DNA of 32,000 nt, taken from the NCBI GenBank assembly GCA_040882285.1, contig JBBEBQ010000010.1, positions 238,147 through 270,146 of the forward strand. The letters run 5' to 3'. The first letter of the stretch is position 1. Each line of letters starts with the position of its first letter. Below are positions 4,830 through 23,648 of this stretch, piece after piece. Origin of the DNA: Gemmatimonadaceae bacterium. Its GTDB lineage: Bacteria; Gemmatimonadota; Gemmatimonadetes; Gemmatimonadales; Gemmatimonadaceae. The position numbers and the translations under genes are program-made. A model generated the notes under the pieces. That model was not told the DNA's origin and searched no databases. It was given only the letters and a program-made list of their open reading frames with translations.

Positions 4830-5795
4830 ATGCAAACGCCGCACGTGCCCCACATCCCCGCTTCGACGGCCAGAGCCACGCTGCTCGTGCTGCTGTCCGC
4901 GGTCAGCTTCGGATCGATCTCGATTCTGACCATCTTCGCCGTTCGCGAAGAGATGACCATTCTGAACCTCGTCTTCTGGCGCTTTCTCTTCGCCGCGCTC
5001 GCGCTGTTCGTGATTGCGCACGCCCCCGTGCGCGCGCACTGGCGCGCCGGGATCGGACTGCTCGCCATCGGGGGTCTCATACAAGCAGCGTGTACGTACA
5101 TAAGCCTGTCAGCGCTGCGCTTCGTTCCGGCGAGCGTGGTAGCGTTTCTGTTCTTCACGTATCCCGCATGGCTCGCGCTCACCGGTGCCGCGCGCGGCAC
5201 CGATCCGCTGACACCCAGGCGCGGCGGAATCCTGCTGCTGGCGATGACTGGAGTCGCTCTCATGATCGGCATACCAGGCGTGGGCGCCGGCACGCACCTC
5301 AACCCTGTGGGAATCGTGCTCGGCCTCACCGCGGCGCTGCTGTATTCCACCTATCTGCCGATCGTCAATCATCTGCAGCGCGCGATACCGCCGATCGCCG
5401 CTTCGTTCTACATCATCCTCGGTGCGCTGCTCACGTTCTTTGTCGCCGGCGTCGCGGCCTCGCGTCCGTGGCTGCCAGACGCGGCCATGCTGGGCGCGCT
5501 CGCCGCACCACCAACGACCTTCGCCTGGATCTATGTGCTCCTGCTCGCGTTCGTGTCCACGGTGATCGCGTTCCTGGCGCTGCTGGCCGGCCTCAAGATT
5601 CTCGGCGCCGCGCGCACGAGCATCATCGCCACCGCCGAGCCGTTCTTCACGACTCTGCTCGCGATCGCGCTTCTCGGCGAGCGGCTGCGCTGGACGACAC
5701 TGGTCGGTGGAGCCTGCATCGCCGCGGCGGTCCTCGCGATAGCTGTAGAGCGGCAGAGCGTGACAGCCAAGCAGTCACTAGTCACTAGCCACTAG
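4830..5795 (+). CDS. EamA/DMT-superfamily permease (about 10 TM)
   Basis: 321 aa, hydrophobic throughout, with a duplicated EamA-like architecture (LLSAVSFGSISILTIFAV...; ...TAEPFFTTLLAIALLGERL). The last codons and the stop lie inside the heptamer repeat. Confidence 0.8.
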   Translation: MQTPHVPHIPASTARATLLVLLSAVSFGSISILTIFAVREEMTILNLVFWRFLFAALALFVIAHAPVRAHWRAGIGLLAIGGLIQAACTYISLSALRFVPASVVAFLFFTYPAWLALTGAARGTDPLTPRRGGILLLAMTGVALMIGIPGVGAGTHLNPVGIVLGLTAALLYSTYLPIVNHLQRAIPPIAASFYIILGALLTFFVAGVAASRPWLPDAAMLGALAAPPTTFAWIYVLLLAFVSTVIAFLALLAGLKILGAARTSIIATAEPFFTTLLAIALLGERLRWTTLVGGACIAAAVLAIAVERQSVTAKQSLVTSH

Positions 5796-5815
5796 TCACT
5801 AGTCACCAGTTACCA
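5774..5815. repeat. Tandem heptamer array: GTCACTA GTCACTA GCCACTA GTCACTA GTCACCA GTTACCA
   Basis: Read directly from the sequence: six consecutive 7-nt units. The array contains the stop of the EamA gene (TAG 5793-5795) and the stop of mnmG on the other strand (5799-5801). Confidence 0.9.
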
Positions 5816-7736
5816 CGCCCCTCCGCCACCGCTCGACCTCGATCACGAGGTTCTGCAGATCGCTCGGATTCACTCCCGGTATCCGCGATGCCTGCGCCAG
5901 CGTGCGCGGCCGGACGTGCGCCAGCTTTTGCCGCGCCTCGAACGAGAGCATCGTCATCTCGTCGTAGGGAAGATCGGCTTCAAGCTTCATCTCCCCCATG
6001 CGTGACATGCGGTCCGCGTGCGCCCGCTCGCGCTCGAAGTAGCCGGCGTACTTGATCTCCAGCTCCGCGCTCAGCACCGAGTCGGCCCCGAGCTCCGTTC
6101 CCGCTCCGACGGCGGCGAACAGCGCCGACAGCGCGACACCGTTCCTCTTCGCCACTTCGCTGATCTTCATTGCGTGCTTGAGCGGCGTCCCGCCCGCGCG
6201 GAGCAGCACCGGGTCGGCTTGCTCGGGGCGGATGCTGCCGCTCTCGGCCGCGGCTATCGCGCCGCGAACCTCTCCCACGCGCCGCTCGGCTATCGCGCGC
6301 TCGTCGTCGGTGTACAGGGCGAGCCGGATCGCGATCGGCGAGAGGCGCTGCAGCGCGTTGTCCTGCCGCACCGTCAGGCGAAACTCCGAGCGCGAAGTGA
6401 ACAGGCGATACGGCTCGTCCACGCCCCGCGTGACAAGGTCGTCTACCAGCACGCCGATGTACGAGGTCTCCCGACCCAGCACCAGCGGCTCGCGATCCAA
6501 CACGCGCAGCGCCGCGTTCGCGCCGGCGACGAGCCCCTGTCCCGCCGCTTCCTCGTATCCGGTCGTGCCGTTGATCTGTCCCGCGAAGAACAACCCCGGC
6601 ATGGCCTTTACCTGGAGCGTCTGGTCGAGCTGCGTCGGTGGATAGTAGTCGTACTCGATCGCGTAGCCCGCGCGGTTCATCCGGACCCGCTCGAGCCCGG
6701 GAATCGACCGCAGGATCTCGAGCTGTACCGGCGCAGGCAGCGACGTCGACAGCCCGTTCACGTATAGCTCCGCCGTCTCGTGTCCCTCGGGCTCGAGGAA
6801 AAGCTGGTGACTCTCGGCCGCGGGAAACTTCACGATCTTGTCCTCGACGGACGGGCAGTACCGTGGCCCGCGCGACGCGATCGCGCCGCCATACATCGCC
6901 GACTGCTCGATGTTGCGGGTGATGATCTCCTTGCCGGCGGCGCCGAGGTGCGTGATCCAGCAGGGAAGCTGCGGCGGATGACGCGTGGCCCCGTTCGACA
7001 CGCGCGGCTCGGTCCAGAAATGCGACCATGAGTAGTCGAACTGATCGATCTCGCTCTCCTGGATCGCGAGCGAGCTGAAATCCACGGTGCGTCCGTCGAT
7101 GCGCGGCGGAGTTCCCGTCTTGAAGCGCGCGACCTGAAGGCCCGCGCTCTCCAACTGCTCGGCGAGATGCGTGGTCGCTGCGTCGCCCGCGCGGCCGCCG
7201 GAGATCTGCGTGGTCGTTCCGATGTGCATGCGCCCGCGCAGGAACGTACCGGTGGTGATCACGACCGTCTTCGCGCCGAAGCGGCGGCCTTCGAGCGTCT
7301 CGACTCCGCGGACCGAGTCGCCGTCCATGAGCAACCGCGCGACGGTGCCCTGGATGGTTTGCAGGCCGGCGTGCCGCTCGAGCAGCGAGCGCGCCGCGCG
7401 GCGGTACAGGCCGCGGTCGCATTGCGCGCGCGGAGACCATACGGCCGGTCCTTTGCCGCGATTCAACATCCGGAACTGGAGCGTGGAGAGATCCGTCGCG
7501 CGTCCCATGATCCCGCCGAGCGCGTCCACTTCGCGCACCACCGTGCCTTTGGCCACGCCGCCGATCGCGGGGTTGCACGACATCTGGCCGATCGTCTCGA
7601 GCGCGCTGGTGACTAGTCCGACAGTTGCGCCGAGGCGAGCCGCCGCGACCGCCGCCTCGGTGCCGGCGTGGCCCGCGCCCACGACGAGGACGTCGAAGTT
7701 CTGTTCCGTCATGGGATTGGTGCGCGCTGCCGCCAT
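5799..7736 (-). CDS. mnmG: tRNA uridine 5-carboxymethylaminomethyl modification enzyme MnmG (GidA)
   Basis: 645 aa. It has an N-terminal FAD fold (FDVLVVGAGHAGTEAA) plus MSCNPAIGG, GPRYCPSIED-like (GPRYCPSVEDK), FFAGQINGTTGYEEAA, and the C-terminal helical domain. The start could instead be ATG 7712 (MTEQNFDV). Confidence 0.95.
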   Translation of the reverse strand: MAAARTNPMTEQNFDVLVVGAGHAGTEAAVAAARLGATVGLVTSALETIGQMSCNPAIGGVAKGTVVREVDALGGIMGRATDLSTLQFRMLNRGKGPAVWSPRAQCDRGLYRRAARSLLERHAGLQTIQGTVARLLMDGDSVRGVETLEGRRFGAKTVVITTGTFLRGRMHIGTTTQISGGRAGDAATTHLAEQLESAGLQVARFKTGTPPRIDGRTVDFSSLAIQESEIDQFDYSWSHFWTEPRVSNGATRHPPQLPCWITHLGAAGKEIITRNIEQSAMYGGAIASRGPRYCPSVEDKIVKFPAAESHQLFLEPEGHETAELYVNGLSTSLPAPVQLEILRSIPGLERVRMNRAGYAIEYDYYPPTQLDQTLQVKAMPGLFFAGQINGTTGYEEAAGQGLVAGANAALRVLDREPLVLGRETSYIGVLVDDLVTRGVDEPYRLFTSRSEFRLTVRQDNALQRLSPIAIRLALYTDDERAIAERRVGEVRGAIAAAESGSIRPEQADPVLLRAGGTPLKHAMKISEVAKRNGVALSALFAAVGAGTELGADSVLSAELEIKYAGYFERERAHADRMSRMGEMKLEADLPYDEMTMLSFEARQKLAHVRPRTLAQASRIPGVNPSDLQNLVIEVERWRRGVVTGD

Positions 7737-10548: not shown

Positions 10549-11387
10549 CTGCCCAGGTGCGTCCGGAACCAGGAGATGGTCTCCGGCCAGGCTGCCGTCG
10601 CCGCGGCGAGGTTCTTTCCTTCGCGCCCGTCCTGCTGCCGGAGGAAGCCGTGTCCGGCGCCCTCATAGAAGATCGGCCGATAGGTCTTGCCCAGCGCTTT
10701 CATGGCGGAGTCCGCTGGCGGAACCGTGGCATTGACGCGTGCGTCGTCGCTCCCGTACAGCCCGAGCACGGGCGCACGGACCGATGTCAGCCGCGCGGGT
10801 GCCGGGGATGTTCCATAATAGACGACCGACGCTCCCAGACCAGGCGAGCGAACCGCGTGCTCGAAGGACACCGCGCCGCCCCAGCAGAATCCCATGATTC
10901 CGTAGCGCGGCGCCGCCGCGGGCAGAGCCATCGCATGCCGCGCGACCGCTGAGATCTGGCGATGCACGTCGTTCATGTCGAGTGTCTGGATGGCCGCTCT
11001 CGCTGCCTGACCGTCGGGATTCTCCGGCGAGCCGGGGATGTTCTTCATGGTGAGCAGGTCGGGCGCGACTGCCAGAAAGCCGTCCGCCGCGAGCTGATCC
11101 GCCACGCTGCGGATCCACGGCGAGAGCCCGAAGATCTCGTGCACCACGATCACGACCGGCGCCTTGGTCCTCCGCTCCGGGTACACGACCCACGCGCGCA
11201 CGCTGTCGCCCGGGCCGGTGGAGACGGTGACCCATTCGGCATGCCTCGGAGACGTGGTCAGCCGCGTCGAGGCGTCCGTCGCGCCAGGCGCGTGTTCGAA
11301 GGGCTCGTCCGCCGCGGGCGTCGATGCCCTCATGCATGCTGTGAGAGCAAGCAACGGCAGAGCGAGCTTTGTGATCACTGGTCTCAT
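10545..11387 (-). CDS. Dienelactone hydrolase family protein (secreted/lipoprotein)
   Basis: Start placed at the internal ATG 11387 (MRPVITKLALPLLALTAC, a lipobox). DLH-type motifs are present: VVIVVHEIFGL, GIMGFCWGG (nucleophile elbow with Cys), and GAGHGF near the C-terminus. The remaining 336 aa of the 616-aa track ORF are out-of-frame read-through of the upstream gene. Confidence 0.8.
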   Translation of the reverse strand: MRPVITKLALPLLALTACMRASTPAADEPFEHAPGATDASTRLTTSPRHAEWVTVSTGPGDSVRAWVVYPERRTKAPVVIVVHEIFGLSPWIRSVADQLAADGFLAVAPDLLTMKNIPGSPENPDGQAARAAIQTLDMNDVHRQISAVARHAMALPAAAPRYGIMGFCWGGAVSFEHAVRSPGLGASVVYYGTSPAPARLTSVRAPVLGLYGSDDARVNATVPPADSAMKALGKTYRPIFYEGAGHGFLRQQDGREGKNLAAATAAWPETISWFRTHLGR

Positions 11388-12391
11388 GCGATTCTCTCCT
11401 GTATTTGCGGACGCAGGTGTGATGCAAGAAAGTCGCACACGCGCCGCTCCGCGAAGTATTTCAATCGCCGGCCATCGCCGGCTATGAACCCGGCGTGGCC
11501 GCCGCGCGCGGGAAAATCGAGCGTCAACCAGCTGTTTCGGGCCGCGATCTCCCGGACCCGGTCGAACACCTCGGATGGAAGGAAGGGATCGTCCGTCGCG
11601 CTCAGCAGCAGCGTGGGCCGCCTGATCCCGTGTAGCCAGCCGATCGAGCTGGACCTCCGGTAATAATCGTCGGCGTCCGCGAAGCCGTGAAGGGGCGCGG
11701 TGATGACGTTGTCGAAGTCGTACATCGTTCTGAGCCGCGGCAGCGCGTCTGCCGGCGCGATGTCTGGAAACTGCTCCAGCTTGGCCGCGGCTTTTCGGCG
11801 CAGCGAGCGCATGAAGTGCCACTGATACAATCTCGCGAATCCCCGCTGGATCTGGATGGAGGAGCGCGCGAGGTCGAACGGAACCGATACGGCGGCGGCC
11901 GCCTTGAGCTGCGGGGGCACGGCCTCTCCGCGCTCGCCGAGGTATTTCAGCAGCACGTTTCCGCCGAGGGAGACGCCGGCCGCGACTATCGTGCGGCCGG
12001 GCTCGGCGGCGACGAGCCGGTCGATGACCAGCGCGATGTCGGTCGTCTCGCCGGAGTGGTAGAACCGGCGCGCGCGGTTCATCTCGCCTCCGCACGAGCG
12101 GAAGATCAACAGATCGGCCCCCCATCCGCGGCGAGCCGCCTCGTGCAGCAGCGCTTGCGCGTAGTGCGACCGGATCGTCCCCTCGAGGCCGTGCAGGATC
12201 ACCAGCCGCGGCGAGCCGGGCTCGCCGGCGATGCGGTGCAGCTCGATGAAATCGCCGTCCGGCGTGTCCCACCGTTCCAGCCGCGTCGGCGCCGGCGGCA
12301 GCTTCCGCGCGAGCTTGCCCCAGAGCGTCTGCACGTGGCGGTTGCGAAGAAGCCAGGCGGGGGAAAAGTCCATAACGATATAATGGCTCAT
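11384..12391 (-). CDS. YheT-like alpha/beta-fold hydrolase
   Basis: 335 aa. Motifs: LVILHGLEG, GVSLGGN (G-x-S-x-G), DDPF, GGHAGF. The layout matches the YheT/ABHD1-3-like family. ATGA overlap with the downstream DLH gene. Confidence 0.8.
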   Translation of the reverse strand: MSHYIVMDFSPAWLLRNRHVQTLWGKLARKLPPAPTRLERWDTPDGDFIELHRIAGEPGSPRLVILHGLEGTIRSHYAQALLHEAARRGWGADLLIFRSCGGEMNRARRFYHSGETTDIALVIDRLVAAEPGRTIVAAGVSLGGNVLLKYLGERGEAVPPQLKAAAAVSVPFDLARSSIQIQRGFARLYQWHFMRSLRRKAAAKLEQFPDIAPADALPRLRTMYDFDNVITAPLHGFADADDYYRRSSSIGWLHGIRRPTLLLSATDDPFLPSEVFDRVREIAARNSWLTLDFPARGGHAGFIAGDGRRLKYFAERRVCDFLASHLRPQIQERIA

Positions 12392-12452
12392 TCACGGACG
12401 CCGTTGTATCGGAACGTCAAATACCTTTACGATCCAATAGCCAATAGCGCCC

Positions 12453-14060
12453 TTGAAATTCAAAGTCCTCCTCACCGACGGCATAGATCCCGAGGGCGTC
12501 GCGTTGCTCGCCGCCGACCCGCAACTCGAGGTCGACGAGGTGTCGACGCTGCCCGCCGCCGAGCTGATCCAGCGCATCGGCGAATACGACGCGCTCGTGG
12601 GACGGAGCGCGACGCGCGTGACGCCGGAGCTGCTGCGCGCGGCGAAGAAGATTCGCGTGATCGGACGCGCCGGTGTGGGGGTGGACAACATCGCGATGGA
12701 CACCGCGACCGAGCTCGGGATCGCGATCATCAACGCGCCGGCCGGCAACACGGTCGCCGTCGCAGAGCTGGTCTTCGGCTCGCTGCTCAGTCTGCTGCGC
12801 GGTCTCCCGATGGCCGACCGCACGATGCACGCGGGCGAATGGCGCCGCTCCGAGCTGCTTGGCGGCGAGCTCAAGGGGAGAACGCTCGGCATCGTCGGGC
12901 TCGGACGCATCGGATCTGAAGTCGCACGCCGCGCGGCCGCGTTCGAGATGGCGGTCGTCGCGTACGATCCGTACGTGCCCGAAACGCGATTCCAGGGACT
13001 GCGCGTAGAGCGCGCCGACTCGCTTGACTCGCTGCTCGCGCTGAGCGACGTCGTCACCATTCACACACCGCTCACGGACGAGACGCGGGGAATGGTCGGC
13101 AAGCGCGAGCTCGGCAAGCTCAAGGCGGGTGCGATCGTTGTGAACCTCGCACGCGGCGGGATCGTCGAGGAAGACGCGCTCGCGGCGGCGCTGAAAAGCG
13201 GCAGACTCGCGGGCGCGGCGCTGGACGTGTTCTCCAGGGAGCCGCTGCCGGCCGACGACCCGCTGCGCTCGGCGCCGAATCTCTTTTTGACACCGCACAT
13301 CGGCGCGTCCACGATTGAAGCGCAGCGCAACGTCGCGCGTGACGTGTGCGCCGCGGTGCGCGAGACTCTGCTGGGCGGCGAGCTGTCGCGCTCGATCAAC
13401 ATCGCGTCCGTCGAGGGCGTGCGCTGGGACGAGCTCAAGCCCGCGCTCCGGCTGAGCGAGCGCGCCGCCGCGGTGGGCCGCGCGATCCTCGCCACGCAGG
13501 GAAATCGCGCGGTGCAGCGCGTGTCCGTCCGCGCGGGCTCCGCGCACGTGGGGGCGAGCGAAGCGCTCCTGGCCGCCGCCGCGGTCGGCGTGCTGGAAGG
13601 CATCGTCGAGGGCGACCGGCTGAACGTGATCAACGCGCGCACGCTAGCCGCGCAGCGCGGCATCGAGCTGTCGTCGCTGGAATCCGCGTCCGGGTCGGCG
13701 GACGATGAGGTCGAGATCCGCATCTCGGCGGGGATGCAGGAGATCGCGGTGGCCGGCACGGCATCGCCGACGGCGCCCGTCCGGCTTACGCGGATCGGGG
13801 CGTTCCATGTGGACGTGCAGCCGCGCGGCACGCTGCTGATTCTCACCAACGAAGACGTCCCGGGCGTGATCGGGCGCGTGGGAACCGTGCTCGGCGAGGC
13901 GCGCATCAACATCGCCGAGTACCACCAGGCGCGGCTTGCCCAGGGCGGCGACGCGCTCGCCGCGGTGTCGGTGGATGGAGCCGTCGGCGAGGAGGTTCGG
14001 GCGCAGCTGCTCGGAATTCCGGGCGTGCGCACGGCGACCGTTGTGACCTTTGCGCGGTAG
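12453..14060 (+). CDS. serA: D-3-phosphoglycerate dehydrogenase, long form with C-terminal ASB/ACT domains
   Basis: 535 aa with a TTG start. NAD-binding motif GIVGLGRIGSEVARR, catalytic region (NLARGGIV...TPHIGAST), and an ACT-like C-terminus (LLILTNEDVPGVIGRVGTVLGEARINIA). Confidence 0.92.
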   Translation: MKFKVLLTDGIDPEGVALLAADPQLEVDEVSTLPAAELIQRIGEYDALVGRSATRVTPELLRAAKKIRVIGRAGVGVDNIAMDTATELGIAIINAPAGNTVAVAELVFGSLLSLLRGLPMADRTMHAGEWRRSELLGGELKGRTLGIVGLGRIGSEVARRAAAFEMAVVAYDPYVPETRFQGLRVERADSLDSLLALSDVVTIHTPLTDETRGMVGKRELGKLKAGAIVVNLARGGIVEEDALAAALKSGRLAGAALDVFSREPLPADDPLRSAPNLFLTPHIGASTIEAQRNVARDVCAAVRETLLGGELSRSINIASVEGVRWDELKPALRLSERAAAVGRAILATQGNRAVQRVSVRAGSAHVGASEALLAAAAVGVLEGIVEGDRLNVINARTLAAQRGIELSSLESASGSADDEVEIRISAGMQEIAVAGTASPTAPVRLTRIGAFHVDVQPRGTLLILTNEDVPGVIGRVGTVLGEARINIAEYHQARLAQGGDALAAVSVDGAVGEEVRAQLLGIPGVRTATVVTFAR

Positions 14061-20287: not shown

Positions 20288-20911
20288 ATGCCGCAACCAC
20301 GAATAGTCGTCACGGCGGTAGCGGTGCTCGCTCTCTGCGCATGCAGCGGAGCCCGCACCCACCCGGAACCGCTTATTCCGCCGGAGGTTCAATTCGTGTC
20401 GCGGGCCGAGTGGGGCGCGCGGCCGCCGGTGCTGCCGATGCAGGCGCACACGCTGAGCCGCCTCACGATCCATCACACGGGAACGAATCAGAACTTCAAC
20501 CGGACGGTGGCGGACAAGCTGCGCGGGCTGCAGCTGTTCTCGCAGCGGGACGACTCGCTCGCGAGCGGCCGGTTGAAACCGGCGTGGCCCGACGTGCCGT
20601 ACCATTTCTATGTAGGCGTGGACGGGGTCGTCGGCGAGGGGCGCGACTGGCGCTACGCCGGGGACACGAACACCGAGTACGATCCGGCATCGCATCTGCT
20701 CGTCGTCGTCGAAGGAAATTTCCAGAAGGACACGCTGACGACCGCGCAGCGCCGGACGCTCGACGTCATCGTGCCCGCGCTCGCGCGTAGCTTCGGGATT
20801 CCCGCGGACCGGCTCGCTTCACACCGCGACTACGCGCGGACGGAATGTCCCGGCGCGAACCTGTACGCCGAGCTGCTCCGGTTCCGCGAGCTCATCCGCG
20901 CGCGGCGGTGA
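20288..20911 (+). CDS. N-acetylmuramoyl-L-alanine amidase, Amidase_2/PGRP family, lipoprotein
   Basis: 207 aa. Lipobox LALCAC. Motifs: LTIHHTG, PDVPYHFYVGVDGVVGEGR, SHRDYARTECPG (Zn ligands His/His/Cys in the expected order). Confidence 0.85.
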   Translation: MPQPRIVVTAVAVLALCACSGARTHPEPLIPPEVQFVSRAEWGARPPVLPMQAHTLSRLTIHHTGTNQNFNRTVADKLRGLQLFSQRDDSLASGRLKPAWPDVPYHFYVGVDGVVGEGRDWRYAGDTNTEYDPASHLLVVVEGNFQKDTLTTAQRRTLDVIVPALARSFGIPADRLASHRDYARTECPGANLYAELLRFRELIRARR

Positions 20912-21273
20912 TGGAAGTACAGATCTTCGGCGTAAAGAAAAGCTCCGCCACGCGCAAAGCTCTGCGCTTTTTCGCGGAGCGGCGGATCAAGACTCACTTC
21001 GTGGATCTGAACGAGCGCGCCGCGTCGCCCGGCGAGCTCAAGCGTTTCGCGCAGAAGTTCGGCGTGACGCGCCTCATCGACCTCAACTCGAAGCGGTACG
21101 CGGAGCTCGGGCTCGGCGCCGCCAGGCTCACGGACGAGCGGTGGCTGGACAAGCTCGCTTTGGAGCCGTTGCTGTTGACGATTCCGCTGGTTCGCTGGCA
21201 GCATCGCCTGACGATGGGGCTCGCCGAGCGCGAGTGGCAGGGGTGGATCGAGACCGAGAAGGGCGGTCACTAG
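20911..21273 (+). CDS. ArsC/Spx/YffB-family thioredoxin-fold protein lacking the N-terminal Cys
   Basis: 120 aa from the ATG at 20911 (TGATG overlap). The N-terminus is MEVQIFGVKKSSATRKALRFF, where family members normally carry C or CxxC at the KKSSA position. Its stop TAG lies in the heptamer repeat. Confidence 0.7.
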   Translation: MEVQIFGVKKSSATRKALRFFAERRIKTHFVDLNERAASPGELKRFAQKFGVTRLIDLNSKRYAELGLGAARLTDERWLDKLALEPLLLTIPLVRWQHRLTMGLAEREWQGWIETEKGGH

Positions 21274-21289
21274 TCACTAGTCACCAGTT
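21266..21289. repeat. Second copy of the heptamer element: GTCACTA GTCACTA GTCACCA GTT
   Basis: Read directly. The 22-nt string CACTAGTCACTAGTCACCAGTT (21268-21289) is identical to 5790-5811. It lies between the ArsC-like stop (21271-73) and the murB stop (21290-92). Confidence 0.9.
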
Positions 21290-22249
21290 TCAAAAGTCCC
21301 CGATAAACCCGATCTCGGGCTCGAGCCGATGCCCGAACTTCTCCTCGACGGCCTTCTGGGCAATGGCGATCAGCTCGCGCACGTCCTTCGCCGTCGCGTG
21401 ACCCAGGTTCACCATGATGTTGGCGTGGATGTGCGAGATCTGCGCGTCACCGTGGCGGTATCCTTTCAATCCGCACTGATCCACGAGCCGCCCCGCGCCC
21501 ACCCCCTCGATCTTCTTGAAGATCGAGCCGGCGCTCGGATGAAATTCCAGCCACGGATGCCGTGAGCCCCGCCAGCTCAGGTTCTCCTGGAGGATCCGGT
21601 GCATCACCGCGGTGTCGCCCTTCGCGAGCTGGAACTCGGCCCACGTCACGATGTCCTTCGTGAAGTGCAGGATGCAGCTGTCGTAGCCGAACTGCATGTA
21701 GTCGCGATCCACGACCTTCCGCTCGTCGGCCTCGGTGAGCAGCTCGCACCGCTCGAACACTTCCGCGATGAACATCGTCCGCTCCCGCTCGGGAGCCGGC
21801 GAGAGGAAATGCAGGTTCTGCCAGACCGCCCCGCCCACCGTGCTCGGGATGCCCACGTAGTGCTCCAGTCCCGACCAGCCCCGCTCCACGGCCTGCGGAA
21901 TGATGTCCGCCATGACGGCGCCGCTCTCCACCCATAGCTTTCCGTCGTCGGAGAACTTGAAGTGCTTCGCTGCGTTCCGGATGACGAGCCCGCGGAATCC
22001 CTTGTCGCCGATCAGGATGTTGGCGCCCAGTCCGAGCACGAAGTATGGGATCCCGACATGGCGGGCCGCGATGATCGAGGATGCGAGGTCGTCCGCGGAG
22101 TCCGCTTCGTAAAAGAGGTCCGCCGGACCTCCTATTTTGAACGTGGTGTATGGAGCAAGCAGCTCGTCGCGCCGAAGCCGCGCGCTGTCGAGCGTGCGCG
22201 CGAGCTCCGCGTAGGAATCTTCCGCAACCCTGGTATCCGGTAAGGACAT
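21290..22249 (-). CDS. murB: UDP-N-acetylenolpyruvoylglucosamine reductase MurB
   Basis: 319 aa from the internal ATG at 22249 (MSLPDTRVAEDSY...). Motifs: LAPYTTFKIGGPADLF, VLGLGANILI, GIPSTVGGAVWQN, AGSIFKK, and the C-terminal domain. Confidence 0.9.
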   Translation of the reverse strand: MSLPDTRVAEDSYAELARTLDSARLRRDELLAPYTTFKIGGPADLFYEADSADDLASSIIAARHVGIPYFVLGLGANILIGDKGFRGLVIRNAAKHFKFSDDGKLWVESGAVMADIIPQAVERGWSGLEHYVGIPSTVGGAVWQNLHFLSPAPERERTMFIAEVFERCELLTEADERKVVDRDYMQFGYDSCILHFTKDIVTWAEFQLAKGDTAVMHRILQENLSWRGSRHPWLEFHPSAGSIFKKIEGVGAGRLVDQCGLKGYRHGDAQISHIHANIMVNLGHATAKDVRELIAIAQKAVEEKFGHRLEPEIGFIGDF

Positions 22250-23648
22250 GGCATTAAGAAAAGGATTGACGAGGTGGCGCGCCACTGTGGGCATCGCTCT
22301 CGCCCTCGTGGCGCTGCCTCCCGCGGCCGCCGCGCAGCGCTCCGACCTCGAGAAGATCATACACCGCCGCGTGCTCGCGAACGGGCTCGAGGTGATAGTG
22401 GTCGAGAACCACGGCGTCCCGCTCGTGACCGCCGAGATCGACGTCAAGAACGGCTCCTTCACGCAGACCCCGGAGACGGCGGGGCTCGCGCACATGTACG
22501 AGCACATGTTCTTCCGCGCCAGCCGGCGGTATCCCGGCTCGGACGAGTTCGTCGAGCGCGCGGCCGACATGGGAGCTGTGTTCAACGGCTCGACCCGCGA
22601 GGAGAACGTCAATTACTACATCACGGTCACCTCGGACCGGCTGAACGACGCGGTCCGGCTGCTCGCGGCGTCGTTTCGCGAGCCGCTCTTCCGGCAGGAC
22701 GAGCTCGAGCGCGAGCGGCAGGTCGTGCTCGGCGAGTACGACCGGAACGAGTCGAACCCGTTCTTCGCGCTGACGCAGGCGCTCGACGAGAAGCTCTATC
22801 CCGGGAACGCGGTCAGGAAGAACACGATCGGCGATCGCGACGTGATCGCCAACGCAACCCCGGCCCAGATGCGCGCCATCCAGCGCAAGTATTACGTGCC
22901 GAACAACTCGGTGCTGATACTCACCGGTGACGTGGATCCGGCCACGGCGTTCGCCGCGGCTGAGCGCAAGCTCGGCGACATGCCACGGGGCGAAGATCCG
23001 TTCGTCAAGGACCCCATCCCGGCGATTCCGCCACTCGCCGGCAACGACGCGATAATCCACGAAGCAGGCGTCGGCGCAGTTACGGTGTTTCTCCAGTGGC
23101 AGGGGCCGAGCGTCGGCGCGGATCCGGACGCGACGTACGCGGCCGACGTCTTCTCCGACGTGCTGAACGATCCCAACTCGCGGCTGCAGCAGCGGCTGGT
23201 GGACAGCGGGCTCTGGGACGGGATCGTGGTGAACTACTACACGCTCGACAACGTCGGGCCGATCACCATCAGCGGGCAGACTTCGCCGCAGCGGCTGCGG
23301 CAGGCGCTCGCGGCGCTGAACGCGGAGATCCCGAAGTTCGCCACCGCGTCCTACTTCGACCCCGAGGAGATTGCCGCCACCAAGGCGCAGCGCGCGGTCT
23401 CGTCGGCCTTCGATCGCGAGCGCTCCTCCGGCTTCGCGCACACACTCGGCTTCTGGTGGAGCGTCGCCAGCCTGGAGTATTACATGGGTTACGTGGACAA
23501 CATGGCCGCGCAGACGCTGGCGGATCTCACCGGCTACGCGAGCAAGTACATAGTAGGAAAGCCGAGGATTACGGGCGTGCTGATCCACCCCGAGGCGCGC
23601 CGCTCGCTCAACCTGACGACAGCCGAGCTGATCGGAGGCGGCCGATGA
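22248..23648 (+). CDS. M16 (pitrilysin/insulinase) family zinc peptidase, active-type subunit, secreted
   Basis: 466 aa. Signal peptide MALRKGLTRWRATVGIALALVALPPAAAAQ. Inverted zinc motif HxxEH present (GLAHMYEHMFF) with a downstream Glu region (REENVNYY). Confidence 0.85.
   Translation: MALRKGLTRWRATVGIALALVALPPAAAAQRSDLEKIIHRRVLANGLEVIVVENHGVPLVTAEIDVKNGSFTQTPETAGLAHMYEHMFFRASRRYPGSDEFVERAADMGAVFNGSTREENVNYYITVTSDRLNDAVRLLAASFREPLFRQDELERERQVVLGEYDRNESNPFFALTQALDEKLYPGNAVRKNTIGDRDVIANATPAQMRAIQRKYYVPNNSVLILTGDVDPATAFAAAERKLGDMPRGEDPFVKDPIPAIPPLAGNDAIIHEAGVGAVTVFLQWQGPSVGADPDATYAADVFSDVLNDPNSRLQQRLVDSGLWDGIVVNYYTLDNVGPITISGQTSPQRLRQALAALNAEIPKFATASYFDPEEIAATKAQRAVSSAFDRERSSGFAHTLGFWWSVASLEYYMGYVDNMAAQTLADLTGYASKYIVGKPRITGVLIHPEARRSLNLTTAELIGGGR

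Follow-up and report, generated by a model that had tools for sequence, protein, structure and literature searches.

The window analysed here is a stretch of 32,000 nucleotides from the genome of a Gemmatimonadaceae bacterium (G000; 2.89 Mb, 66.6% GC, 27 contigs, 96.6% complete), in which it occupies C10:238147-270146. At 5774-5815 of the window a tandem array of 7-nt units (a heptamer array) lies between two convergent genes, one encoding an EamA-family transporter and the other mnmG. The features of this junction are the following:

4830..5795, + strand: EamA-family transporter gene (PF00892, E 2e-27)
5774..5815, + strand: solo heptamer array, 'C-type' (ACTAGT palindromes with C between), filling the entire EamA/mnmG spacer
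5799..7736, - strand: mnmG/gidA gene (PF01134, E 7e-148, plus C-terminal domains)
Units of the array, + strand: GTCACTA 5774-80, GTCACTA 5781-87, GCCACTA 5788-94, GTCACTA 5795-5801, GTCACCA 5802-08, GTTACCA 5809-15

The six units were established by direct reading, and Tandem Repeats Finder (TRF) assigned the array a period of 7 with 5.4-6.3 copies. This agrees with an earlier description made by a model from the letters alone (the sequence-only reading), which had reported six GTCACTA-type units at these positions. Each repeat unit combines the 6-bp palindrome ACTAGT with a single asymmetric base (C on one strand, G on the other). ACTAGT palindromes indeed recur at 7-bp spacing, and because they are palindromes the orientation of an array is readable solely from the seventh base. 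The array belongs to the solo 'right arm' type, with outer-type units (GTCACCA) facing mnmG. A 14-mer of the repeat, with up to 2 mismatches allowed, has 8 matches in the window against 0.02 expected.

Both flanking genes end inside the array. The EamA open reading frame (ORF) 4830-5795(+) stops with TAG at 5793-95 and the mnmG ORF 5799-7736(-) with TAG (CTA on the + strand) at 5799-5801, leaving a gap of 3 nt between the two stops, as had been claimed. Array units 1-3 supply the final six codons and the stop of EamA (tail SLVTSH), and units 4-6 supply the final five codons and the stop of MnmG (tail VVTGD). The last Pfam domain of MnmG reaches residue 630 of 645. The claim of stops in all frames on both strands is true for the canonical unit: whatever the frame, the + strand meets TAG after at most 18 nt and the - strand TAG or TGA after at most 12 nt. 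The variants GTCACCA, which is common, and GTTACCA have no + strand stops. Between 5400 and 6200 there are 0 sites resembling an intrinsic terminator (GC-rich stem-loop plus U tract), and no promoter was found at the junction. The array itself folds in 6-bp blocks with mismatches and has no T run; the predicted energy is -13.9 kcal/mol for the + strand (z -2.9 relative to shuffled controls) and -32.3 kcal/mol for the - strand (z -4.9).

All nine congeners yielded the EamA/mnmG junction, its flanks being 75-89% identical. The congener genomes are metagenome-assembled genomes (MAGs) that break at repeats, so absence means 'not found', and counts from congeners are not independent of one another. 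The state of the junction in each genome is as follows:

G000 (source genome): 6 units
G001: 7 units
G002: ~4 units
G003: one ACTAG core within a palindrome, AGCGACTAGTCGCT
G004: ~7 units, degenerate
G005: 5 units
G006: one ACTAG core within a small hairpin, CCGCGGACTAGCTACTCGCGG
G007: 3 units
G008: assembly break exactly there
G009: ~5 units

The array is clear in six of the nine congeners, with 3-7 units, and in all species the spacer between the conserved coding ends consists essentially only of array or core sequence. Its presence in most congeners suggests that this copy probably predates their divergence. The EamA tail SLVTSH is kept in G000, G001 and G005, which have 5-7 units. An ORF that runs into the array always meets a stop by the third unit, with the tail H, VTSH or SLVTSH, so copy number leaves the tail unchanged.

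A family of intergenic heptamer arrays

Arrays of at least 3 units were counted in the source genome, the strand of each being assigned by the single asymmetric base. There are 158 of them (77 C-type, 67 G-type, 8 G/C-switching and 6 other mixed), and degenerate RTCACYA arrays occur in 8 of the 9 congeners, so the earlier suggestion of a dispersed intergenic repeat family was right. Placement was read from a gene map of 2525 ORFs (88% coding) made by a caller based on G+C content at third codon positions (GC3), in which stops are exact and starts approximate. On this map 139 arrays are intergenic; of the others, 10 lie at contig ends, 8 run across the edge of an ORF and 1 is located deep inside one. 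Several contigs start or end in arrays, which indicates that the repeat breaks the assembly. The most frequent size is 4 units (79 of 158 arrays). Arrays hold 491 of the 553 ACTAGT sites in the genome (89%); outside them CTAG is ~7.6-fold rarer than base composition predicts (1176 observed vs 8922 expected).

The GTCACTA arrays are one of several heptamer families in this genome. A period-7 array is present in 242 of the 1882 intergenic regions (13%), and among TRF calls period 7 (569 rows) is second to period 9 (597 rows). The units that coexist in it are unrelated in sequence: ACTAGTC (144 TRF rows), AATAGCC/AACAGCC (75 and 71), ACGCAGC (35), AGCAGCT and others.

The intergenic arrays are distributed over the junction types as follows:

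Co-directional, >>: 50 arrays, 26% of intergenic bases
Co-directional, <<: 35 arrays, 26% of intergenic bases
Convergent, ><: 34 of 139 arrays (24%), 27% of intergenic bases
Divergent, <>: 20 arrays, 21.5% of intergenic bases

There is therefore no preference for convergent junctions among the 139 arrays, and divergent junctions are mildly under-used. The association is with gene 3' ends: for 62 predicted genes an array is at most 7 nt away from the gene end in either direction, and of the adjacent 3' ends 79 of 169 are no more than 10 nt from the array edge, compared with 23 of 137 for adjacent 5' ends. Sibling families show the same tendency. For GCTGCGT, 42% of neighbouring 3' ends and 0% of 5' ends are within 10 nt, and for GGCT[AG]TT the values are 40% and 21%. 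The sibling units GGCTGTT, GCTGCGT and AGCTGCC contain no stop in any frame. As stop-free siblings also hug 3' ends, this closeness is a property of the heptamer class, and the stops are most likely a consequence of unit sequence wherever an array abuts or overruns a gene end. Supply of stops is thus most likely a by-product.

Half of the arrays (80) occur in pairs, and 37 clean inverted pairs are present. Their handedness is 37:0, the order always being (TAGTGAC)n, loop, (GTCACTA)n. For inverted neighbours in loci from other phyla the ratio is 22 vs 2 (13 vs 2 outside Gemmatimonadota). The loop-side unit is typically TAGTAAC / GTTACTA and the outermost unit TGGTGAC / GTCACCA. This inner/outer polarity is shared by the solo arrays, of which 23 of 76 carry GTTACTA innermost and none carries it outermost. 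Fifteen solos open with a single inverted unit, which marks them as collapsed pairs. The loops measure 17-134 nt. A conserved interior and target-site duplications, features of a miniature inverted-repeat transposable element (MITE), were not seen: none of the 37 loops resembles another, and no target-site duplication is visible at empty or filled sites.

Paired arms fold to -50 to -110 kcal/mol. Arm lengths within pairs are uncorrelated in the source genome. Locus-level compensatory change of the two arms was considered and rejected: the correlation within G000 (rho 0.30) was not significant, and that of a second variable position was ~0. The purine skew of the loops relative to transcription direction was also not significant (p = 0.21).

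The content of the loops varies, and some hold arrays of a second heptamer family. At C27:21830-22019 the loop is a complete tRNA-Val(GAC) gene (21912-21985) with (TAGTGAC)x4 and (GTCACTA)x4 exactly at its flanks; a GC hairpin separates the tRNA from the left arm, and heptamer arrays lie between the neighbouring tRNAs of this cluster. A period-7 array is found no more than 150 nt from about half of the 48 tRNA genes, compared with 13% of all intergenic regions, and in three tRNA clusters (C5:257338-258453, C9:105-666 and C27:21624-22107) the spacers are largely arrays of several unit families. The loop at C27:20258-20439 holds an intrinsic-terminator-like GC hairpin with a T run. Loops between arms in Flavobacteriales and Gammaproteobacteria MAGs (L025, L027, L116) also contain terminator-like GC hairpins and T runs. 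The arrays look as if they extend the base of a pre-existing terminator stem.

A further group of arrays brackets small genes for the '23S rRNA intervening-sequence protein' (IVP; PF05635), of which the source genome has 9 matches above the curated cut-off. Inverted arms, 26-71 nt in length, enclose 8 of 10 IVP loci, and their sequence, often heptameric, differs from cassette to cassette. The cassette at C5:268505-269000, with its IVP gene at 268653-268970, has (TAGTGAC)x4 plus TAGTAAC as one arm and a decayed GTTACTAG as the other; in its syntenic copy in G008 (L092) both arms are intact. In a Hymenobacteraceae MAG (L031), arms of the (TAGTGAC)n/(GTCACTA)n type enclose a divergent IVP, whose ORF ends in PTSH inside the array. 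In a Rhodopirellula MAG (L094) an IVP gene stands beside two (GTCACTA)n arrays, both C-type and therefore direct rather than inverted. The EamA/mnmG array has neither a partner arm nor an ORF in the junction and so lacks the two-arm structure of these cassettes. The link of arrays to IVP genes is real for individual cassettes, but the unit cannot be predicted from the IVP subfamily. A cognate code between IVP and heptamer was rejected, since no close relationship joins the IVPs that stand next to (GTCACTA)n arms in Gemmatimonadaceae, Hymenobacteraceae and Rhodopirellula. Nor does the number of IVP genes follow the GTCACTA family: 36 of 41 relatives possess such genes, and G003, with 10 of them, lacks RTCACYA arrays. 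No paper linking heptamer arrays to IVP genes was found in the literature searched.

Twelve array sites in three 19.5-kb regions were compared between G000 and G001, G005 and G008. The positions are conserved and the copy numbers differ. Conserved positions together with homologous loops at a given site indicate vertical inheritance. Some sites have collapsed to a mini-palindrome with no loop (for example G005 at the orthologue of C7:117646 and G008 at C5:87860), and a few are empty, as in G005 with 7 nt where G000 carries an array at C7:110376. Runs of identical variant units inside arrays fit slippage. Unit composition, counted as exact three-unit windows, differs between species:

G000: GTCACTAx3 86, ATCACTAx3 17
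G001: GTCACTAx3 22, ATCACTAx3 61
G007: GTCACTAx3 14, ATCACTAx3 28
G008: GTCACTAx3 52, ATCACTAx3 0

The share of ATCAC-type units is ~90% in G001, 10-18% in G000 and 0-12% in G008, in both arms. Since the arms shift together between genomes but are unmatched within them, this is a genome-wide unit shift and not compensatory change at single loci.

Among 40 relatives the exact 21-mer (GTCACTA)3 is concentrated in the genus of the window (7 of 9 species), with one further species in another family. In a collection of species-representative genomes it occurs in at least 120 stretches, and the matches listed include Gemmatimonadaceae, Dialister, many Bacteroidota, Saccharibacteria, Planctomycetota, cyanobacteria and Proteobacteria. 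Sister species carry differing heptamer families: in G003, which lacks RTCACYA arrays, the 'backwards' control unit ATCACTG occurs in arrays (5+1 and 7+4 matches).

The window contains a second solo array:

21266..21288, + strand: second solo array (GTCACTA x2, GTCACCA, GT) at another convergent junction
20908..21273, + strand: ArsC-family gene (PF03960), TAG stop 21271-73 inside the second array
21290..22285, - strand: murB gene (PF02873, PF01565), TGA stop 21290-92, 2-4 nt past the second array; start uncertain, ORF open to 22612

A short member of the sibling AATAGCC family (CCAATAG x2.1) is found at 12434-12448, in the divergent gap between ORFs 11384-12391(-) and 12453-14060(+). Elsewhere in the genome, ARAGORN called a second tmRNA at C5:218949-219314 with an unusually long tag (AKDSNVLEFRPKAERQSLRPALMAA, then stop), which may be a false call; the ordinary tmRNA lies at C18:169216-169572 and has the tag ANDNLALAA before its stop.

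Origin and role of the EamA/mnmG array

What is observed for the arrays is gain and loss in 7-nt steps, long-held position, collapse of pairs, fixed handedness and polarity, and a genome-wide shift of the unit. The EamA/mnmG array is probably one of the solo 'half-elements' in a genus-wide family of intergenic heptanucleotide arrays, of the same class as the short tandemly repeated repetitive (STRR) sequences and the Xanthomonas GGGAATC repeats. The convergent junction would have been very tight, with a CTAG-centred mini-palindrome already present; there the array would have expanded through replication slippage and so overrun the native EamA and mnmG stops. Because the unit has TAG or TGA in every frame on both strands, the array would now terminate both genes. 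The arrays may be transcribed with the upstream gene, and structure prediction suggests that they fold. The function, if any, is plausibly that of a transcribed 3'-end hairpin, putatively giving protection of the mRNA 3' end, as in repetitive extragenic palindromic (REP) sequences, or RNase III-type processing. Alternatively, the arrays may have no function and be tolerated as selfish or neutral repeats.

Several points weigh against this account. Slippage alone leaves the fixed handedness, the 4-unit mode and the genome-wide unit switch unexplained, and these features would allow for a trans-acting factor. In 19 of 26 co-directional pairs it is the opposite strand that folds better than the transcribed one (Wilcoxon p ~0.009), contrary to the G.U-tolerant pairing on the transcribed strand expected under RNA-level selection on the hairpin; loop purine skew does not significantly account for this difference. 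A match between arms beyond the genome average is not kept locus by locus. Folding of the transcribed strand and the unmatched arms together argue against strong selection for an RNA hairpin. The gene ends, moreover, come from a crude GC3-based caller, whose stop positions are exact and whose starts are not.

The arrays could instead be arms or orphaned arms of a mobile or copy-and-paste element, the junction copy being a gene-less derivative of an IVP cassette inserted there. Such an origin is unlikely. It would fit the single handedness (37/37 pairs; 22:2 across phyla), the inner unit TAGTAAC / GTTACTA common to gene-less pairs, solos and the IVP cassette, and presence or absence between species, as at the site with 7 nt in G005. 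The presence of (GTCACTA)n-family arrays around IVP genes of three phyla would fit as well; these arrays are inverted in L092 and L031 and in the same orientation in L094. However, positions are mostly conserved between species of 85-92% identity, with loops homologous per site, as expected from vertical descent, and between sites the loops are unrelated and hold host items such as a tRNA and terminator-like hairpins. No target-site duplication was seen, no transposase is associated with the arrays, no Y1/RAYT gene is present, and the IVP proteins beside like arms in different phyla are not close relatives. A REPIN system (paired REP sequences forming a hairpin) with its RAYT (REP-associated tyrosine transposase) was rejected separately, as the Y1 transposase domain PF01797 has 0 matches in the 96.6% complete source genome and was matched in control genomes. 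Quite unlikely, too, is that the arrays are reiterated binding or action sites for a factor acting in trans, one that would read or write units of 7 nt and set their sequence, arm size and handedness. Candidates would be Avd-like IVP four-helix-bundle proteins, whose binding is hypothetical, or another nucleic-acid enzyme. The unit switch between species in both arms would agree with such a factor, as would the co-residence of several unrelated heptamer families, all of period 7, and the concentration of CTAG within arrays and its depletion outside. The 4-unit mode, equal to that of the unrelated G-rich Xanthomonas unit (PMC4692102), points the same way. Yet IVP copy number does not track the family, IVP subfamily does not predict the flanking unit, and biased slippage or drift from mixed ancestral arrays could shift unit frequencies as well. 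It is similarly doubtful that a dedicated trans-acting machinery, possibly with Avd-like IVP proteins, writes or reads the arrays and extends the bases of existing hairpins (terminators, tRNA acceptor stems, IVP cassettes) by 7-nt steps with fixed polarity. If true, it would account for the 7-nt period, for arms of ~4 units regardless of unit sequence, for one handedness shared across phyla and for unit switches that run through whole species.

The sequence-only reading had also proposed that the array insulates convergent transcription or translation, or that slippage in a simple sequence repeat (SSR) remodels the C-terminal tails of both proteins. That the array is a selected bidirectional stop or insulator cassette is very improbable, and stop supply at convergent junctions as its purpose is not supported. 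Both copies in the window do lie at convergent junctions and supply or abut stops, 62 predicted genes end at arrays, and the EamA/mnmG junction has no intrinsic terminator. Against this, convergent junctions hold 24% of arrays on 27% of intergenic bases, the majority of arrays lie between co-directional genes or in tRNA clusters, and the three sibling families without stops in any frame are placed similarly. The common GTCACCA variant, moreover, loses the forward-strand stops, and two congeners manage the same junction with one ACTAG core. Remodelling of the tails was borne out as far as copy number is concerned, which varies from 3 to 7 units between species here and differs at 12 other loci, but the tails do not depend on it. 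Phase variation, in which the array would be a contingency SSR switching or remodelling the C-terminal tails or the expression of EamA and MnmG, is the least credible explanation. The tail is set by the first three units or fewer, SLVTSH is conserved in three species, and the tails lie outside Pfam domains. The array is located at the 3' end and not in a 5' coding region or promoter, and the tails are unchanged across the 5-7 units of G000, G001 and G005. The flanking genes include housekeeping genes (mnmG, murB), and arrays adjoin all kinds of genes, as Rehm et al. observed too (PMC4692102).

Comparison with known repeat systems

Heptamers of the GGGAATC / GGGGA(C/T)T type in Xanthomonas and Nostoc are dispersed, intergenic and scarce between divergent genes (Rehm et al. 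2015, PMC4692102). They are often found tens of nt from a stop codon and form 70-75 inverted pairs per genome 'in convergent orientation'; their gene context is kept between species while length and sequence differ, and the 4-unit mode in Xanthomonas has been attributed to G-quadruplexes (PMC4692102). The GTCACTA family is like them in its 4-unit mode and its inverted pairs and, as Rehm et al. describe for Xanthomonas, in its mild deficit at divergent junctions and its lack of preference for convergent ones. Unlike them, it has a near-palindromic unit with all-frame stops that is not G-rich, it is found in Gemmatimonadaceae, and it is seen with IVP cassettes and an arm-enclosed tRNA. As the GTCACTA unit permits no G-quadruplex, its four-unit preference is not explained by such structures.

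STRR is the name given to heptanucleotides of the Calothrix type. The source genome resembles heterocystous cyanobacteria with STRR in having several unrelated heptamer families in short intergenic arrays. The units and the phylum are different, and no chirality or IVP link was found described for STRR. For Calothrix PCC 7601, three heptanucleotides are on record as cited in PMC4692102. TAACTGA direct repeats are known from marine Beggiatoaceae, cyanobacteria and Bacteroidetes (MacGregor 2015, PMC4679880). These are intergenic, with 2-6 copies in ~170 sets per genome and stop codons in the unit, and lie mostly just upstream of start codons, almost never in inverted pairs (PMC4679880). GTCACTA is likewise stop-containing and scattered over distant phyla (Gemmatimonadota, Bacteroidota, Dialister, Planctomycetota and others), but its arrays hug 3' ends and half of them are in inverted pairs.

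Two further systems have hairpins in common with the arrays. REP sequences, with bacterial interspersed mosaic elements (BIMEs) and REPINs of Proteobacteria, are also short, abundant, hairpin-forming, located after gene 3' ends and rare between divergent genes. The arms described here differ in being tandem 7-nt arrays rather than a single imperfect palindrome, and the source genome is without a RAYT/Y1 transposase. REP hairpins are thought to protect mRNA 3' ends, and those very near stop codons reportedly affect translation. The second system is the intervening sequence (IVS) of 23S rRNA with its IVP/S23p ORF (PF05635), in which an inverted-arm stem surrounds a gene for a small four-helix-bundle protein, as at 8 of the 10 IVP loci of the source genome. 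Stems of rRNA IVSs are excised by RNase III. No IVP cassette of the source genome was seen inside an rRNA gene, and the EamA/mnmG array differs further in having no partner arm, no ORF and no rRNA context.

According to literature cited in PMC4679880 and PMC4692102, heptanucleotide arrays have been noted since ~1990 and were in 2007 the most over-represented class of long SSRs; they are also reported as the most abundant category in many genomes (Mrazek 2007, via PMC4679880). The sequence-only reading, which did not recognise the element as described, was therefore wrong with respect to its class (heptanucleotide SSRs, PMC4692102, PMC4679880). No description of such repeats in Gemmatimonadetes, or of the GTCACTA unit itself, was found in the literature searched. 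What is new is the unit and the lineage; the class is already known. For annotation, dozens of genes (62 predicted) end in array-encoded tails and stops, and assemblies break at the arrays. Compared with the G-rich Xanthomonas repeats, the GTCACTA family is a clean case of a four-unit preference independent of G-quadruplexes, and its handedness across phyla, its loop cargo (tRNA, terminator-like hairpins, IVP genes) and the genome-wide unit switches between sister species constrain any mechanism proposed for these arrays.

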